64,000 nucleotides of DNA from Escherichia coli (GTDB lineage: Bacteria > Pseudomonadota > Gammaproteobacteria > Enterobacterales > Enterobacteriaceae): assembly GCF_024298765.1 (NCBI RefSeq), contig NZ_CP101210.1. One strand, written 5' to 3'. Numbering within the stretch: position 1 is the stretch's first letter; each line of letters starts with the position of its first letter. Below are positions 663 to 46,464 of this stretch, one piece after another. Below the pieces are notes generated by a model, which saw only the letters and a program-made list of their open reading frames with translations, did not search any database and had not been told where the DNA came from. Position numbers and translations under genes: made by a program.

Positions 663-1688
663 ATGCACATTTTATCTGTTTCAAAAAAGGAAGTTGGAAG
701 AGCTGGGGATAGATTAGTTTCTCAGTTTGGTACAGGTGAAAAATATAAAGAGGAAGATGTACAAATTCTTCATGAGTGGAGGATGTTGCATTTATATCCT
801 TTAAGTAAAATACAATTTTATATGGAAAGAGAGGCTATTTCCTTAAACAAAAATGCGTTACTATCCTCTAGAATTAAGAGGATGCCTTCCATTGTTACTA
901 AGCTTTCTAGATTTCCTGATATGAAGTTAAATAAGATGCAGGATCTTGGTGGGTGCCGGGCTATTTTAAATAATCTGGATCAAGTGTATGATTTAGTTAA
1001 TAAAATAAAATCATCTAAATTCTCACATGAACTAGTTAGAATGGATGATTACATGATAGACGTGAAAGATTCTGGTTATAGAAGCTTTCATATGGTCTAT
1101 TCATTCCAAAATAAAAAATTTCCATCTTTAAATGGGTTGCGCATTGAAATGCAAATAAGAACAGCTATTCAACATAGCTGGGCTACAGCAGTTGAAATGG
1201 TTGGTTTGTTTCGAAAGGAATCATTGAAATCTGGTTTTGGTGATGCAAGATGGCTTAGGTTTTTTGAATTGGTATCAGAGCTTTTTTATAAACTTGAGTA
1301 TGAAAAAGAACCATCTGGGAGTTATATAAAAATATCAGAAGAATTAAGTTATTTATCCGTCGAGTTGAATGTTTTCGATATATTAGCTGCTTACAATGCC
1401 GTAGTTAGCCATATTGAGGGTAGCAAAAAATATGATAAAGGACTTTGCATAATTGTTGTTGATACCATAAAGCGGAATATAAATATAAAGAGCTTCGAAA
1501 ATCACAATCATGCGAAGGCGGCAGAAGCTTATGTCGAGTCTGAAAAATACTGCGCGGAAAATAAAGGCTGTGAAGTGGCTATGGTTTCTGTTAGTTCAAT
1601 TAGTGAATTAAAAAATGCATATCCTGCTTACTTTTTAGATACGAAAACTTTTTTAAATTATCTCAGTAGGTATGTTTTTATAAAATAA
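663..1688 (+). CDS. RelA/SpoT-domain nucleotidyltransferase (small alarmone synthetase-like, toxSAS/CapRel-like) with fused C-terminal domain of unknown function
   Basis: 341-aa ORF. Synthetase-fold motifs visible in the translation: RIKRMPSIVTK (RxKxxxSxxxK), DLGGCRAI (DxxGxR), GYRSFHMVY (compare GYQSLH of Rel enzymes), EMQIRTAIQHSWA (E-x-Q-I-R-T...H). About 140 aa of C-terminal extension without a recognised motif. Visibly AT-rich relative to flanks. Confidence 0.7.
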   Translation: MHILSVSKKEVGRAGDRLVSQFGTGEKYKEEDVQILHEWRMLHLYPLSKIQFYMEREAISLNKNALLSSRIKRMPSIVTKLSRFPDMKLNKMQDLGGCRAILNNLDQVYDLVNKIKSSKFSHELVRMDDYMIDVKDSGYRSFHMVYSFQNKKFPSLNGLRIEMQIRTAIQHSWATAVEMVGLFRKESLKSGFGDARWLRFFELVSELFYKLEYEKEPSGSYIKISEELSYLSVELNVFDILAAYNAVVSHIEGSKKYDKGLCIIVVDTIKRNINIKSFENHNHAKAAEAYVESEKYCAENKGCEVAMVSVSSISELKNAYPAYFLDTKTFLNYLSRYVFIK

Positions 1689-2211: not shown

Positions 2212-2422
2212 TTTCATATTGGCGAGGTAAAGGTAGTTAAGTAGAATGGCTGCGGGTGCTTGAGGCTATCTGCCTCGGGCATGAACACCAAAGGCAGATA
2301 GAGAAAAGCCCCAGTTAACATTACGCGTCCTGCAAGACGCTTAACATTAATCTGAGGCCAATTTCATGCTAGACACATGTAGGTTAGCCTCTTACGTGCC
2401 GGAAGGCAAGGAGAAGCAGGCT

Positions 2423-2578
2423 ATGAAGCAGCAAAAGGCGATGTTAATCGCCCTGATCGTCATCTGTTTAACCGTCATAGTGACGGCACTGGTAACGAGG
2501 AAAGACCTCTGCGAGGTACGAATCCGAACCGGCCAGACGGAGGTCGCTGTCTTCACAGCTTACGAACCTGAGGAGTAA
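2423..2578 (+). CDS. hokD: Hok-family type I toxin HokD (RelF)
   Basis: Translation MKQQKAMLIALIVICLTVIVTALVTRKDLCEVRIRTGQTEVAVFTAYEPEE matches HokD as I recall it; the track ORF 2366..2578 extends 19 codons upstream in frame. Confidence 0.8.
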   Translation: MKQQKAMLIALIVICLTVIVTALVTRKDLCEVRIRTGQTEVAVFTAYEPEE

Positions 2579-2794: not shown

Positions 2795-3046
2795 ATGATG
2801 AACATCGAAGAACTGCGTAAAATTTTTTGTGAAGATGGCCTCTATGCTGTGTGCGTTGAAAATGGAAATCTTGTTAGTCATTACCGCATTATGTGTTTGC
2901 GAAAGAATGGGGCTGCGTTAATTAATTTTGTGGATGGTCGAGTGACAGACGGATTTATCTTGCGCGAAGGTGAGTTTGTCACTTCATTACAGGCACTGAA
3001 AGAGATCGGAATAAAAGCAGGCTTTTCAGCTTTTGCAGAAGAATAA
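2795..3046 (+). CDS. rem: prophage protein Rem-like (83 aa)
   Basis: 83-aa ORF at the position and size of Qin rem, between hokD and ydfU; assigned by synteny and length. Confidence 0.5.
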   Translation: MMNIEELRKIFCEDGLYAVCVENGNLVSHYRIMCLRKNGAALINFVDGRVTDGFILREGEFVTSLQALKEIGIKAGFSAFAEE

Positions 3047-3112
3047 ACTCATCTACAATCTTGCGCGGGGCTGAACTCCCGCTGAGTAACACCGTGCCAC
3101 CGGAGAAAACCG

Positions 3113-4455: not shown

Positions 4456-5208
4456 ATGAACCTTGAAGCCTTACCAAAATATTACTCCCCAAAATCTCCA
4501 AAATTGAGCGATGACGCTCCAGCGACAGGCACCGGTTGTTTAACAATTACGGATGTAATGGCAGCGCAGGGGATGGTGCAGTCGAAAGCACCACTTGGGT
4601 TGGCCTTATTTCTGGCAAAAGTTGGTGTTCAGGACCCTCAGTTTGCGATTGAAGGCCTGCTAAATTACGCGATGGCACTGGATAACCCGACATTGAACAA
4701 ATTGAGTGAAGAAATCCGGTTACAGATTATTCCTTACCTCGTGAATTTTGCCTTTGCTGATTACTCCAGGTCTGCGGCAAGTAAGGCTCGCTGTGAGCAT
4801 TGTTCAGGTACGGGATTTTATAATGTATTGCGCGAAGTGGTGAAACACTACAGACGCGGGGAATCTGTAATCAAGGAAGAATGGGTGAAGGAACTATGTC
4901 AGCATTGCCATGGTAAGGGCGAAGTCAGCACAGCGTGCAGAGGGTGTAAGGGTAAAGGGATTGTTCTGGATGAAAAAAGAACCCGGTTTCATGGCGTACC
5001 GGTATATAAGATTTGTGGGCGTTGTAATGGAAACCGATTTAGTCGTTTACCGACCACGCTGGCACGACGTCATGTCCAGAAGCTGGTACCAGACCTGACC
5101 GATTATCAGTGGTATAAGGGGTATGCGGACGTCATTGATAAACTGGTAACAAAGTGCTGGCAGGAAGAAGCATACGCGGAAGCGCAATTGAGGAAGGTGA
5201 CGAGATAA
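4456..5208 (+). CDS. quuQ: late-gene antiterminator Q-like protein with DnaJ-type CxxCxGxG zinc-finger repeats
   Basis: 250 aa, matching the length of Qin Quu[25 protein letters not shown] motifs; immediately upstream of a late promoter/terminator pair. Confidence 0.6.
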
Positions 5209-5340: not shown

Positions 5341-5883
5341 TGCTTTAAATGGGGCAATAGAGATATTGAATCTCATCCCGGGATAAACATTGGCAGTTGA
5401 AGGTCCACGCGAACCATTTATCCGGCAAAATTCCACGCGTAATCCTGTGGTAATTTCTTCTGCATCTCGAAGATTGAGAGCTGAAACGTGAAGCTGGGCA
5501 TCGATACGCCATCGGATGGGAATATAAGACCTTTGCTGCTTTTGTAGTCAAAGTTTTTGACAATTCCTGTCATTTTAGGGGACAGAAAAACTCCTTAATA
5601 CTGATAACCTGGTGCACCATACACACGTTCCTGGAGAAAACTACTTTTTTGATAGGGTTGAAGGTGGCTGGATGTCTAAAATAAACATTGCTTCATATGT
5701 TCAACTATGAGTTAATGACTGCGTCGGTTTGAAGAACAGACGATATACGAAGTAGTTTACTAAAGCAGTTCTCATTTCAGGTGTTATTCACTTATTCCTT
5801 CTTTGAGTCTCTCCAATTAAGTACGAAGTCGTTTCTGTTATGCAAACCATTTATGCCGAAAGGCTCAAGTTAAGGAATGTAGA

Positions 5884-6099
5884 ATGTCAAATAAAATGAC
5901 TGGTTTAGTAAAATGGTTTAACGCTGATAAAGGTTTCGGCTTTATTTCTCCTGTTGATGGTAGTAAAGATGTGTTTGTGCATTTTTCTGCGATTCAGAAT
6001 GATAATTATCGAACCTTATTTGAAGGTCAAAAGGTTACCTTCTCTATAGAGAGTGGTGCTAAAGGTCCTGCAGCAGTAAATGTCATCATTACTGATTAA
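5884..6099 (+). CDS. cspB: cold-shock protein CspB-like
   Basis: 71 aa [64 protein letters not shown]...; RNP-1-like KGFGFI motif; long upstream leader typical of csp genes. Confidence 0.8.
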
Positions 6100-6380
6100 A
6101 ATTCATCGCTCGTCTGTATACGATAACGAAGAAGGCTGATGCCTGAGTAGAGATACGGACAGAGTAGTGAATATTGGATCTCTTTAATAAAAAGTAAGGA
6201 GGTCCAATACATGAAACAATGGCCAGCATATTTGGCAAAATCTTAATCAGGAAAAGTATGCTAACCATTGTGGTGAAGTGCAGGTTTGCTGCATGAATAG
6301 TTTTACAGCAGAAGCTAACTGCTGGCATGGCAAAACAAAGTGCGTAAGTGGATGACTCCCACAAAAAGCACCACAATCTC

Positions 6381-8408: not shown

Positions 8409-8771
8409 GGTAATATTAAATCGGAACATTTACATCGCGGAATGTAAAATTTAAATAAAAAGGACTCTTCCATGAGCCAAAATTCCTGAAATCTTAAGGG
8501 TAAGATAAAAGGTCTTAATCAGAATGACACGTTTTATTAATAAATAAAGCTATTCTTTCATTGCTGTGTTTTTCTTTACAAAAGTAATCCTTGCTATGGG
8601 TGGTTAATCATGCGTTAATGGTGTTCTGGTTTGTTACAAATTTATCTGAAGCAGTCATTTTTATAATTTTATTATTTGTACCTCTTGAGATTTCCTTGTT
8701 GGTTTTTCTCTCTGATATTTTTTTTTCGGACCATTCTGCCCAAGGGCTAATTTCTTCAAAAGGTAATAATT

Positions 8772-8984
8772 ATGTCTAACAAAATGACTGGTTTAGTGAA
8801 ATGGTTTAACCCTGAAAAAGGTTTTGGTTTCATCACGCCGAAAGATGGCAGCAAAGATGTGTTTGTCCATTTCTCAGCAATTCAGAGCAACGATTTCAAA
8901 ACATTAACTGAGAATCAGGAAGTTGAATTTGGTATTGAGAACGGACCTAAAGGTCCTGCCGCTGTTCATGTAGTGGCGCTTTGA
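8772..8984 (+). CDS. cspI: cold-shock protein CspI-like
   Basis: 70 aa [70 protein letters not shown]. Confidence 0.8.
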
Positions 8985-9015
8985 GGTAGACAATATTACA
9001 AACCATATTCACTTT

Positions 9016-33381: not shown

Positions 33382-33983
33382 TGGCATTCAGAATGAGTGA
33401 ACAACCACGGACCATAAAAATTTATAATCTGCTGGCCGGAACTAATGAATTTATTGGTGAAGGTGACGCATATATTCCGCCTCATACCGGTCTGCCAGCA
33501 AACAGTACCGATATTGCACCGCCAGATATTCCGGCTGGCTTTGTGGCTGTTTTCAACAGTGATGAGGCATCGTGGCATCTCGTTGAAGATCATCGGGGAA
33601 AAACCGTCTATGACGTGGCTTCCGGCGACGCGTTATTTATTTCTGAACTTGGCTCGTTACCGGAAAATGTCACCTGGTTATCCCCGGAAGGGGAATATCA
33701 GAAGTGGAACGGCACAGCCTGGGTGAAGGATACGGAAGCAGAAAAACTGTTCCGGATCCGGGAGGCGGAAGAAACAAAAAACAGCCTGATGCAGGTAGCC
33801 AGTGAGCATATTGCGCCGCTTCAGGATGCTGTGGATCTGGAGATCGCAACGGAGGAAGAAACCTTGTTGCTGGAAGCCTGGAAAAAGTATCGGGTGTTGC
33901 TGAACCGTGTTGATACATCAACTGCACCGGATATTGAATGGCCAGCCCTACCGTATGGTAAGATATATAAATTCTATAATTAG
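33381..33983 (+). CDS. tfa: tail fibre assembly protein Tfa-like
   Basis: 200 aa starting in a TAATG overlap with the stf stop. Confidence 0.75.
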
Positions 33984-43945: not shown

Positions 43946-44836
43946 ATGATCAAGAAGACAACGGAAATTGATGCCATCTTGTTAAATCTCAATAAGGCTA
44001 TCGATGCCCACTACCAGTGGCTGGTAAGTATGTTTCACAGCGTGGTCGCGAGAGATGCCAGTAAGCCAGAAATAACGGATAACCATTCTTATGAACTGTG
44101 CCAGTTTGGTCGGTGGATTGATCATCTGGGACCACTCGATAACGATGAATTACCTTACGTTCGGCTAATGGATTCTGCCCATCAACATATGCATAACTGT
44201 GGTCGGGAATTAATGCTGGCTATTGTTGAAAATCACTGGCAGGACGCGCATTTCGACGCCTTTCAGGAAGGGTTGCTTTCTTTTACTGCGGCATTAACCG
44301 ATTACAAAATTTATTTGCTGACGATCCGTAGCAATATGGATGTTTTGACGGGATTGCCGGGTCGTCGGGTTCTTGATGAATCCTTTGATCATCAGTTACG
44401 CAACGCTGAGCCTCTGAATCTTTATTTAATGTTGTTGGATATTGACCGATTTAAATTGGTTAATGATACCTACGGGCATTTAATCGGCGATGTAGTATTA
44501 CGCACCCTGGCAACTTACTTAGCCAGTTGGACGCGCGATTACGAAACGGTTTATCGCTACGGTGGCGAAGAATTTATCATTATTGTCAAAGCGGCTAATG
44601 ATGAAGAAGCATGTCGTGCAGGTATCAGAATTTGCCAGTTAGTCGATAACCATGTCATCAAACATTCTGAAGGGCATATCAACATTACCGTGACTGCAGG
44701 TGTGAGTCGCGCATTTCCTGAAGAGCCTCTGGATGTGGTCATTGGAAGAGCGGACCGGGCAATGTATGAGGGTAAGCAAACCGGAAGAAATCGCTGTATG
44801 TTTATTGACGAACAAAACGTGATTAACCGAGTTTAA
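43946..44836 (+). CDS. dgcZ: zinc-regulated diguanylate cyclase DgcZ (YdeH)
   Basis: 296 aa from MIKKTTEID...; GGEEF motif (RYGGEEFII). Confidence 0.85.
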   Translation: MIKKTTEIDAILLNLNKAIDAHYQWLVSMFHSVVARDASKPEITDNHSYELCQFGRWIDHLGPLDNDELPYVRLMDSAHQHMHNCGRELMLAIVENHWQDAHFDAFQEGLLSFTAALTDYKIYLLTIRSNMDVLTGLPGRRVLDESFDHQLRNAEPLNLYLMLLDIDRFKLVNDTYGHLIGDVVLRTLATYLASWTRDYETVYRYGGEEFIIIVKAANDEEACRAGIRICQLVDNHVIKHSEGHINITVTAGVSRAFPEEPLDVVIGRADRAMYEGKQTGRNRCMFIDEQNVINRV

Positions 44837-44879
44837 GCTCCGTTTAACATTCATTGAGAAAACTGATGCTAATGTGTCA

Positions 44880-44980
44880 ACGATCCGTTATCAGTGCAGG
44901 AAAATGCCTGTTAGCGTAAAAGCAAAACACAAATCTATCCATGCAAGCATTCACCGCCGGTTTACTGGCGGTTTTTTTTC
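44880..44980 (+). ncRNA. mgrR: candidate small RNA (MgrR-like), ending at an intrinsic terminator
   Basis: Downstream of dgcZ: GTTTAA element at 44842-44847 and extended -10-like TGCTAATGT at 44866-44876, then about 96 nt to the hairpin CCGCCGG-TTTACT-GGCGG plus T-run (44952-44980). Assigned from memory that MgrR lies next to mgtS; could be only the dgcZ terminator. Confidence 0.35.
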
Positions 44981-45054
44981 GCCGTCATAAAAATCAGGCC
45001 CCTTGTACACAGTTGTAACAAGGGGCCGGTTAGGTGAGGGATTATCTCCGTTCA

Positions 45055-45150
45055 TTAGTCATCCCATTTGTGGCTGAAATACGCGGCCAGAAAACCAGAA
45101 AATAAAATTATTCCCAGTACGGCCATAAAAACATTCATATTACCCAGCAT
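45055..45150 (-). CDS. mgtS: small membrane protein MgtS (YneM), 31 aa
   Basis: Minus-strand translation MLGNMNVFMAVLGIILFSGFLAAYFSHKWDD; GGAGG ahead of the ATG; GC hairpin downstream (44997-45031). Confidence 0.75.
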   Translation of the reverse strand: MLGNMNVFMAVLGIILFSGFLAAYFSHKWDD

Positions 45151-45276
45151 TATTTGCCTCCGTTTATGGTGTGGTGTGTTTCCTCGCTTACCTTAATTTT
45201 CATCTCAATGAGAAAGATATTAGCAGAGGTAACCTAAACGAAGGCTGAATTAAATTTTTATTGTGTTCGACTTAAA

Positions 45277-46464
45277 TCAACAAAGCGCGGGCTGCCCCCA
45301 CGGTCTTGCACGAATTCCTTTTAACATAAGCACCCACGCAGCAATGATCACCAACGCTAAGATGATAAACAGCGAGAAAGGCGGCAGACTGGTAAGCACT
45401 ATGCCACTCACTAATGGGTTAATCGCCGCACCAAGCCAGCCTAAAGACTGAGCGGAAAAATAGCTGGCTTTCATTCCTGGCGGCGCAATATGGTCAATCA
45501 ACATATACTCGCCCGGCGCATAAATGATTTCACCGACAGTAAATACCGCAGCTGACATACCCCACAATAGCAGGCTGTTGCCGGAAAAAATAAAACCGAC
45601 CAGCCCAATGACGAAACAGAGGGTGCCTGCTGTCATCAGCGCGCGGATGTTAGCCGGGTTAAGTCGGCGGCCCACGGAATATTGCAACGTAACTACCATG
45701 GCAGCATTAACCGGAAGAACAACCGCAACCACCTTTTCGGCAAAATCACCATCAGCAATCACCATCACATATTGTGAAATGCACGAGGCAAATGCGCCGC
45801 TAACAAAGGAAGCCAGAAAACCAGAGCAGGTAAACCACAACAGTGCTTTATCTTGTAATAAAACTTTCGGCGACCAGGCACTGCCTGTTTCCGTGGCGAT
45901 GATTTTCTCGCTGCGCTTTACCCAAATTTGAATGAAAAGCATGGGAAACGCGGAACAGATAGCTGCCAGCCAAAAGGGCAGATTGATGCTCTGCATCACC
46001 AACAGCGTGCCGAGCGGCGGACCGATGGTCCACCCAATGTTGAGCATGGTGTAGTTGATTGAGAAGATTTTCGTTTTGCTGGTGGAGGAAAGATTGTCGG
46101 CAAACCAGGCTTTCAACACGGTAGCAAAAACGGAATAGGCGCAGTTAATAAGGGCAAAAAAGAGCACCACCAGCGTCACGTTATTCACTAAAGGAATGGC
46201 AATAAAACCGCTGGCGAAGGCGGTAATTGCCAGTAACATATAGCGTTTCTTGTCGAACTTATCCGCCAGGATACCAAAACCGAGGCTAAAAACGACGCCA
46301 ATAGTGAGCGCAATTGTCATCGCATAACCGATTAGATCGACACTCAGGCTGTACTGGCGACTCAAGTAAATGGTCATAAACGGCAGCGTAGCGCCGCGTC
46401 CGATGGTTAATAACAACGACGAGGCAAGAAGGGCGCTGGTAGAGCGTCGTAGGGATAAGTTCAT
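45277..46464 (-). CDS. ydeE: MFS transporter YdeE
   Basis: 395 aa, multiple transmembrane segments; synteny next to eamA. Confidence 0.8.
   Translation of the reverse strand: MNLSLRRSTSALLASSLLLTIGRGATLPFMTIYLSRQYSLSVDLIGYAMTIALTIGVVFSLGFGILADKFDKKRYMLLAITAFASGFIAIPLVNNVTLVVLFFALINCAYSVFATVLKAWFADNLSSTSKTKIFSINYTMLNIGWTIGPPLGTLLVMQSINLPFWLAAICSAFPMLFIQIWVKRSEKIIATETGSAWSPKVLLQDKALLWFTCSGFLASFVSGAFASCISQYVMVIADGDFAEKVVAVVLPVNAAMVVTLQYSVGRRLNPANIRALMTAGTLCFVIGLVGFIFSGNSLLLWGMSAAVFTVGEIIYAPGEYMLIDHIAPPGMKASYFSAQSLGWLGAAINPLVSGIVLTSLPPFSLFIILALVIIAAWVLMLKGIRARPWGQPALC

Follow-up and report, generated by a model that had tools for sequence, protein, structure and literature searches.

The spacer between dgcZ and ydeE in this Escherichia coli genome raises a simple question: are two short elements recognised there from the letters alone, an mgtS-like ORF on the minus strand and a putative small RNA on the plus strand, the PhoP-regulated pair that they appear to be, and what else does the spacer encode? 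We put at roughly 95% the probability that it is the E. coli mgrR / CDS58-mgtS-mgtT locus, with two convergent low-Mg2+-responsive transcription units; no observation speaks against that identification. This mgrR–mgtS locus is already known and thoroughly characterised, and in the window (the whole 64-kb stretch of DNA analysed) it is ordinary except for one private base in the mgrR promoter. The identities and coordinates of all four genes, the promoter architecture, the RNA structure, the intact seed and the conservation are read from sequence. The result is mainly useful as a sanity check: a real, experimentally characterised pair of small RNA and small protein was recognised from sequence alone, and its coordinates are now fixed.

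The spacer is bounded by dgcZ (43946..44836, plus strand, stop codon TAA at 44834-36) and ydeE (45277..46464, minus strand), and the RefSeq annotation gives the order dgcZ, mgtT, mgtS, ydeE across it. In K-12 MG1655, mgtS (b4599), mgtT (b4775) and mgrR (b4698) lie between ydeE and dgcZ, mgrR being curated on the same strand as dgcZ, so that it and mgtS converge, in agreement with the original prediction that mgtS and MgrR are neighbours here. The window and the corresponding MG1655 stretch are 99 % identical in alignment, and K-12 mgrR aligns at the same place and on the same strand as the putative small RNA, neither elsewhere nor on the opposite strand. The region 44700..45350 is found by megablast in 5,416 of 5,426 complete E. 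coli genomes, and a separate search gives 5,414 of the same set. The span initially proposed for the pair, 44840..45150, does hold both genes but cuts off an upstream half-site of the mgrR promoter (44831-35) and the whole mgtS promoter and leader (to ~45250).

Alignment to K-12 b4698 places mgrR at 44882..44979 on the plus strand, with its 5' end position taken from the K-12 RefSeq annotation; the small RNA foreseen on this strand is therefore real in position, but is 98 nt long rather than the ~96 nt first estimated. The RNA is identical to that of K-12 at 97/98 positions, the sole difference being nt 4, C here and U in K-12. Of ten records taken at even intervals along the ranking, 7 match the full 98-nt sequence, with its C at nt 4, at 100 %; the K-12-derived strain BW25113, also among the ten, stands at 99.0 %. 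Length, strand, position relative to dgcZ and mgtS, seed, ARN stretch, terminator, U8 tail and PhoP-type box are all shared with K-12 mgrR, and apart from nt 4 the present gene differs in its −10 hexamer, which carries the private A discussed below. A gathering-threshold scan of the region against Rfam returns a single match, RF01407 (“STnc560 Hfq binding RNA”; 278.1 bits where 55 is the threshold, E = 1.7e-63, covering the full model, 1-214), whose span of 44848..45061 on the plus strand exceeds the RNA itself, beginning in the promoter and ending past the second hairpin. No paper naming “STnc560” and “MgrR” together was found in the literature searched; they are equated here because the Rfam match overlaps the curated K-12 mgrR.

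The predicted minimum free energy fold of MgrR (-25.9 kcal/mol, z = -2.89, equalled by 0/200 shuffles) has two hairpins, one at the 5' end (nt 5-35) and a terminator hairpin (nt 72-91) followed by the U8 tail, with a mostly single-stranded centre, and enzymatic probing of the K-12 RNA agrees with this two-hairpin fold (PMC6239178). The K-12 anatomy described in the same paper puts an A-rich/ARN stretch at about nt 36-52 (44917-44933) and the 14-nt seed, U55-A68, at 44936-44949; both stretches and the U8 tail are the same as in K-12. The terminator, an 8-bp G+C-rich hairpin at 44953..44972 with a T8 run at 44972..44979, is flagged by a terminator rule; the three plus-strand elements first noticed, a GTTTAA element, an extended -10 and a strong terminator, can all be found at 44831..44979. 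The sequence determinants of Hfq binding by a Class II sRNA are also in place: AAAAGCAAA, inside an A-rich stretch, supplies three perfect ARN repeats (nt 37-45), in addition to the U8 tail.

Pairing with the known targets was evaluated with the K-12 eptB and ygdQ sequences, not those of the present genome. Folding of full-length MgrR with these targets gave long duplexes, meaningless because intramolecular structure is ignored, and was replaced by use of the single-stranded centre (nt 36-70, seed included). This pairs with eptB at -20.5 kcal/mol, in a duplex that starts from -8 and spans the start codon, and with ygdQ at -20.9 kcal/mol, from -2 relative to the ATG. Between 24 and 57 of 1000 shuffles do equally well or better, so that these duplexes beat only 94-98 % of shuffles: the predicted pairing is marginal against that background, and taken alone is consistent with the known regulation rather than decisive.

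PhoP-activated promoters such as those of mgtA, mgrB and phoP carry a (T/G)GTTTA direct repeat in place of a -35 element. The putative mgrR promoter fits this class: a PhoP-type box at 44842..44857 on the plus strand (GTTTA 44842-46, N6, ATTGA 44853-57), with 12 nt between its proximal half-site and the -10 hexamer, is followed by an extended -10, TGcTAATGT, at 44867..44875 (TG 44867-68, TAATGT 44870-75). A pattern search finds one further, distal GTTTA at 44831..44835, overlapping the dgcZ stop codon, and the resulting GTTTAAGCTCCGTTTA (44831..44846, plus strand) is the sole perfect GTTTA-N6-GTTTA in 64 kb, with 0.17 expected by chance and at least one in 14/100 shuffles. This striking repeat is not what is conserved. 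A GTTTA lies ~40 nt upstream of the MgrR start in 70/74 MgrR loci of other Enterobacteriaceae, and in all 70 of these it is followed 11 nt downstream by a pentamer resembling (A/G)TT(G/T)(A/G), then by 12 nt, then by TGnTAnnnT. In the loci displayed, the distal half-site reads GTTTA in the window and in E. whittamii alone; it is GTTTT in the divergent E. coli L020 and AGTTT in E. albertii. A GTTTAA element upstream of mgrR had been rightly noticed, but as judged from these alignments the conserved PhoP box is the GTTTA/ATTGA pair and the distal GTTTA, with the perfect repeat that it forms, is Escherichia-specific.

The mgrR and mgtS promoters share with the mgtA, mgrB and phoP type the 11-nt periodicity of half-sites, the spacing of 12 nt between the proximal half-site and the -10, and the lack of a -35. 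They differ in that each box here has one degenerate half-site (ATTGA in mgrR, ATTCA in mgtS) and in that Escherichia mgrR adds a third phased half-site further upstream. A generic sigma-70 scan of the region recovered neither promoter, because PhoP-activated promoters have no -35.

The one private base lies in this promoter. Position 44872, the third base of the mgrR -10 hexamer, is A here, giving TAATGT; other E. coli have TACTGT. It is the only difference in 651 nt from the closest genome, that of strain 104, and it is the sole feature of the locus absent from databases: the exact 60-nt mgrR promoter has no match in the complete E. coli genomes, and a 30-mer centred on the A allele is found in 0/5,426 of them, against 4,180 at 100 % for the corresponding C-allele control. 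One possibility is that the change from C to A alters expression of MgrR in the present strain, and hence repression of eptB and modification of lipopolysaccharide (LPS): the base lies within the -10 hexamer, where a private A could alter promoter strength, and this allele is absent from all the complete genomes compared. The sigma-70 consensus at the third -10 position is T, however, which neither A nor C matches, and A, C and G are all found at the equivalent position in mgrR promoters of other genera, across which TGnTA is kept. An effect on expression is accordingly unlikely, the A being most likely a sequencing error or a private SNP without effect. It would be relevant if the polymyxin or LPS phenotype of the present strain were ever of interest.

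On the minus strand, mgtS occupies 45055..45150 (31 codons, MLGNMNVFMAVLGIILFSGFLAAYFSHKWDD). Its product is identical to that of K-12 over 31/31 residues (YP_001165319.1) and scores 80.6 bits against the NCBIfam equivalog NF033842 (cutoff 35; residues 1-31 of 31). A Shine-Dalgarno sequence, GGAGG, lies at 45161..45157, 6 nt upstream of the start codon, and a terminator-like hairpin follows the gene, so that the 31-codon ORF stands as predicted, with its ribosome-binding site and its terminator. Amino acid sequence, Shine-Dalgarno, leader and promoter are all identical to those of K-12 mgtS (yneM, b4599), with no coding difference. The predicted promoter, at 45217..45250, is a mirror image of that of mgrR (ATTCA 45250-46, N6, GTTTA 45239-35, N12, TAATAT 45222-17), and the pattern (A/G)TT(C/A)A-N6-GTTTA-N12-TAnnAT recurs in 30/43 MgtS loci of other Enterobacteriaceae. 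The published leader is 58 nt (bioRxiv 10.1101/2021.06.30.450655), and transcription would start at about 45208-45210. The downstream G+C-rich hairpin spans 45027..44997 on the minus strand and is followed by UGAUUUUUAU, with an interrupted U-run at 44993..44989; a 121-nt stretch folds at -39.7 kcal/mol (z = -4.25). The terminator rule that flagged the mgrR terminator did not flag this hairpin.

Taken with the K-12 literature, this layout suggests a coherent circuit. In low Mg2+, PhoQ/PhoP would induce both convergent units, as is described for the two genes in K-12 (bioRxiv 10.1101/2021.06.30.450655; PMC6239178), in line with the regulation first attributed to them. From the plus strand, the PhoP-type box and extended -10 would drive the 98-nt MgrR, which with Hfq would pair over the sites where translation of eptB and ygdQ begins, repressing both, and repression of eptB would in turn alter LPS modification; in K-12, MgrR is a Class II Hfq-dependent sRNA that represses both targets through U55-A68 (PMC6239178, bioRxiv 10.1101/2021.06.30.450655). 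From the minus strand, the mirror-image promoter would yield an mRNA for MgtS, with CDS58 upstream and mgtT downstream, and MgtS would stabilise the MgtA importer and act on PitA, raising intracellular Mg2+. Three sources describe MgtS as an inner-membrane protein that raises MgtA levels and acts, with MgrR, on PitA to give higher intracellular Mg2+ (PMC11429745, bioRxiv 10.1101/511675, bioRxiv 10.1101/2021.06.30.450655). PhoQP dependence, Hfq binding, repression of eptB and ygdQ, the effects on MgtA and PitA and the detection of the MgtT and CDS58 proteins all belong to the K-12 literature; the present strain is presumably alike in these, and its expression of the locus would be expected to follow K-12.

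Two further ORFs, unnoted earlier, share the mgtS transcript: three small ORFs (CDS58, mgtS and mgtT) are stacked on it, with a TAATG stop/start overlap at each junction. The second translated ORF, mgtT (44951..45055, minus strand, 34 codons, MNGDNPSPNRPLVTTVYKGPDFYDGEKKPPVNRR), appears in the ORF list and corresponds to K-12 b4775. It starts at an ATG whose A is also the last base of the mgtS stop codon; it reads through the mgtS terminator hairpin, so that the hairpin, correctly noticed as such, sits within a coding sequence, and it stops inside the mgrR terminator, lying antisense to the 3' end of MgrR over 29 nt (44951-44979). K-12 mgtT has the same overlap with mgtS, the same 34 codons and its stop likewise in the mgrR terminator. 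The present MgtT is identical to it at 33/34 residues, the one difference, V15T, being due to two substitutions in the loop of the hairpin, which are also the two differences from K-12 within that structure. Upstream, the CDS58 leader ORF (45150..45203, minus strand, 17 codons, MKIKVSEETHHTINGGK) has a TAA whose last A is shared with the mgtS ATG and, given the published 58-nt leader, an AUG only about 5-7 nt from the likely mRNA 5' end. It is unannotated in RefSeq, and is identical, with no difference, to the 17-aa ORF upstream of mgtS listed as CDS58 by PIRT-Seq (PMC12350097, supplementary file 5).

Both ORFs are translated in K-12. Ribosome profiling first revealed MgtT, and epitope tagging confirmed it (Weaver et al. 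2019, bioRxiv 10.1101/511675). An independent detection came from PIRT-Seq (Nucleic Acids Res 2025, PMC12350097), in which 93 reads support CDS58, with a faint SPA-tag signal. The mgtT gene is co-transcribed with mgtS and under PhoQP control, its product is not membrane-associated, and neither deletion nor overexpression has a phenotype (PMC11429745). NCBIfam holds no model for MgtT.

Are they kept as proteins? Neither purifying selection nor a reading frame kept among relatives is seen for MgtT, on counts that are small: nonsynonymous and synonymous changes stand at 5:1 against the divergent E. coli L020 and at 7:1 against E. albertii, where neutral change would give about 3:1. The E. whittamii gene has a frameshift, and in other genera the corresponding ORF varies from 6 to 46 codons, with none in Salmonella. 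For mgtS the same comparisons give 0-5 changes, only two per comparison being protein-altering in E. albertii and E. whittamii. A TAATG or TGATG junction and an N-terminus of the form MNGDNPxPNRPL do recur across loci, and this N-terminus coincides with the DNA of the terminator stem. A CDS58-like ORF is present in only 2/43 other loci. Because of the nonsynonymous excess, the frameshift, the varying length and the scarcity of CDS58, and with the numbers small throughout, MgtT and CDS58 are not kept as proteins outside Escherichia, nor CDS58 outside E. coli, and both have the look of translated ORFs that are either young or free of constraint. That two ORFs translated in K-12 should evolve like unconstrained sequence bears on the wider issue of how many “small proteins” found by ribosome profiling are functional.

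Another possibility is that the convergent overlap is itself regulatory. A read-through mgtS-mgtT RNA would be complementary to the final 29 nt of MgrR, and its transcription would collide with that of mgrR, so that the two units could tune each other by interference or by RNase III cleavage of the duplex, while translation of mgtT through the hairpin could modulate the read-through. The position of mgtT, across one terminator and ending within the other, is what such a model needs, and the detection of MgtT protein (bioRxiv 10.1101/511675, PMC12350097) means that some transcripts must read through; translation of mgtT would itself require read-through of the mgtS hairpin. A gene with no deletion or overexpression phenotype (PMC11429745) and a product that is not protein-constrained also suits a model in which what matters is that the stretch is translated or transcribed, and not the peptide made. 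On the other side, no report of cross-talk between mgtS and MgrR was found in the literature searched, and MgrR and MgtS function when separately expressed from plasmids (bioRxiv 10.1101/2021.06.30.450655). Comparison among genera points the same way. The convergent arrangement of mgtS and mgrR is seen in Escherichia, Citrobacter, Salmonella, Kluyvera, Kosakonia, Phytobacter, Pluralibacter and Yokenella; in Kluyvera, as little as 6-30 nt separates the two genes, and a search for an ORF that overlaps the mgtS stop codon came up empty. Some 30 genuine MgrR loci, in Enterobacter, Lelliottia, Leclercia, Silvania, Siccibacter and Huaxiibacter, have no MgtS in the stretch fetched, and in E. cloacae mgrR is flanked by unrelated ORFs. 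By these counts, linkage of mgrR and mgtS is common but not obligatory, and since the overlapping arrangement is absent in many genera and in Kluyvera, it is not required for either gene. A regulatory overlap is therefore improbable, a little more so than an effect of the private promoter base.

A narrower version would confine such coupling to Escherichia, with the three stacked ORFs and the 29-nt antisense overlap as the device: ribosomes moving from mgtS into mgtT would melt the terminator hairpin, the resulting read-through would tune MgrR by collision or duplex formation, and the A at 44872 would shift the balance. We regard this as a long shot.

That the plus-strand element is instead simply the 3' UTR and terminator of dgcZ, any small RNA being processed from the dgcZ transcript, is highly implausible: the distal GTTTA does lie over the dgcZ stop codon, and there is no terminator between that stop (44836) and the hairpin at 44953-44972, so that dgcZ transcripts probably end at the mgrR terminator, but a PhoP-type box and extended -10 stand at a fixed distance in 70/74 loci, including those of Enterobacter with a different upstream gene, the curated K-12 record treats mgrR as a 98-nt ncRNA in its own right, and PhoP-dependent mgrR transcription is reported in the literature (PMC6239178).

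For the comparative survey, 100,044 species genomes were scanned for exact matches to a 19-mer over the seed, giving 84 loci; invariance of the seed among these is a product of the seed-based selection and is uninformative on conservation. About 76 of the loci are in Enterobacteriaceae, five are chance matches and one is a contaminant. The chance matches (Atopobium, two Moraxella, a member of the Mycoplasmataceae and a RIFCSP gammaproteobacterium) have no MgtS, T-run or box, and a contig from a “Caldithrix” MAG is E. coli contamination. An alignment across all genera (77 sequences, MAFFT and RNAalifold) recovered only the terminator, with 7 pairs, owing to the many indels in the 5' hairpin; one terminator pair covaries from A-U to G-C in 21 sequences. 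For a subgroup of 20 sequences from Escherichia, Citrobacter and Salmonella, and with the caveat that one of the aligned sequences supplied the structure tested, the two-hairpin structure has 93.7 % of its cells paired, against at most 48.5 % in slid registers, and compensatory change is seen at 6 MgrR pairs, five of them in the 5' hairpin.

An unusual feature of mgrR, the gene for the 98-nt sRNA MgrR (44882..44979, plus strand) between dgcZ and ydeE, is a single base in its promoter. At position 44872, inside the -10 hexamer, the window has A (TAATGT) where other E. coli have C (TACTGT). A 30-mer carrying the A allele matched none of 5,426 complete genomes, while the corresponding control with C was present in 4,180 of them. 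The A could affect promoter strength, could be a neutral SNP, or could stem from a sequencing error. A second single-base difference from E. coli strain 104, the closest complete genome in the promoter comparison, lies within dgcZ at 44655 (T vs C); across 3,651 nt, these two positions are the only ones at which the window and strain 104 differ.

The Rfam match to the MgrR family (RF01407, 44848..45061) is not the same in extent as the RNA itself: on the 5' side it takes in 34 nt ahead of MgrR, starting within the promoter, and on the 3' side a further 82 nt that cross the antisense of the mgtS terminator. PGAP does not annotate the mgrR ncRNA in non-K-12 genomes, and the only annotated feature under the match is mgtT, the 34-codon ORF just downstream of mgtS. 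Upstream of mgtS, which encodes a 31-aa protein convergently to mgrR, is a 17-codon leader ORF, MKIKVSEETHHTINGGK (45150..45203, minus strand), its stop codon overlapping the mgtS start (TAATG). It exactly matches the “CDS58” published from PIRT-Seq, and has no RefSeq annotation. With only some 5-7 nt between its AUG and the inferred 5' end of the mRNA, CDS58 would be nearly leaderless.

Among the loci recovered by an exact 19-mer MgrR seed scan of 100,044 species genomes, linkage to mgtS is variable. The MgrR homologues of Enterobacter, Lelliottia, Leclercia, Silvania, Siccibacter and Huaxiibacter (L007 and about 30 other loci) keep the PhoP-type promoter, and do not have mgtS, dgcZ or ydeE as a neighbour. 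In L007, from Enterobacter cloacae, the homologue (about 5020..5140, minus strand) is flanked by a 120-aa ORF and a 336-aa ORF, the latter a putative AraC/GlxA-type regulator from its appearance. In Citrobacter amalonaticus S646 (L044; 639..745, minus strand), no MgtS was found in the approximately 640 nt downstream of the homologue, unlike L034, L045 and L058, labelled C. amalonaticus or Citrobacter sp., where mgtS is 79-80 nt away. Enterobacteriaceae bacterium RIT691 (L016) has two MgrR-like copies on the same strand, about 1.6 kb apart (1402..1508 and 2996..3102, both minus): no GTTTA box is present at about -40 in the copy adjoining mgtS; its counterpart has the canonical box. One further locus, on a contig labelled “MAG: Caldithrix sp.” (L010, SMXE01000224.1), carries mgrR, an MgtS identical to that of E. 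coli and a K-12-type MgtT, and is almost certainly E. coli contamination in a metagenome bin.

Elsewhere in the window, four further Rfam matches reach the gathering threshold (2254..2428, 5723..6146, 8625..9011 and 33724..33922): the sok antitoxin RNA, two cspA-type thermoregulator leaders and IS009, all probably in prophage or cold-shock-paralogue regions.
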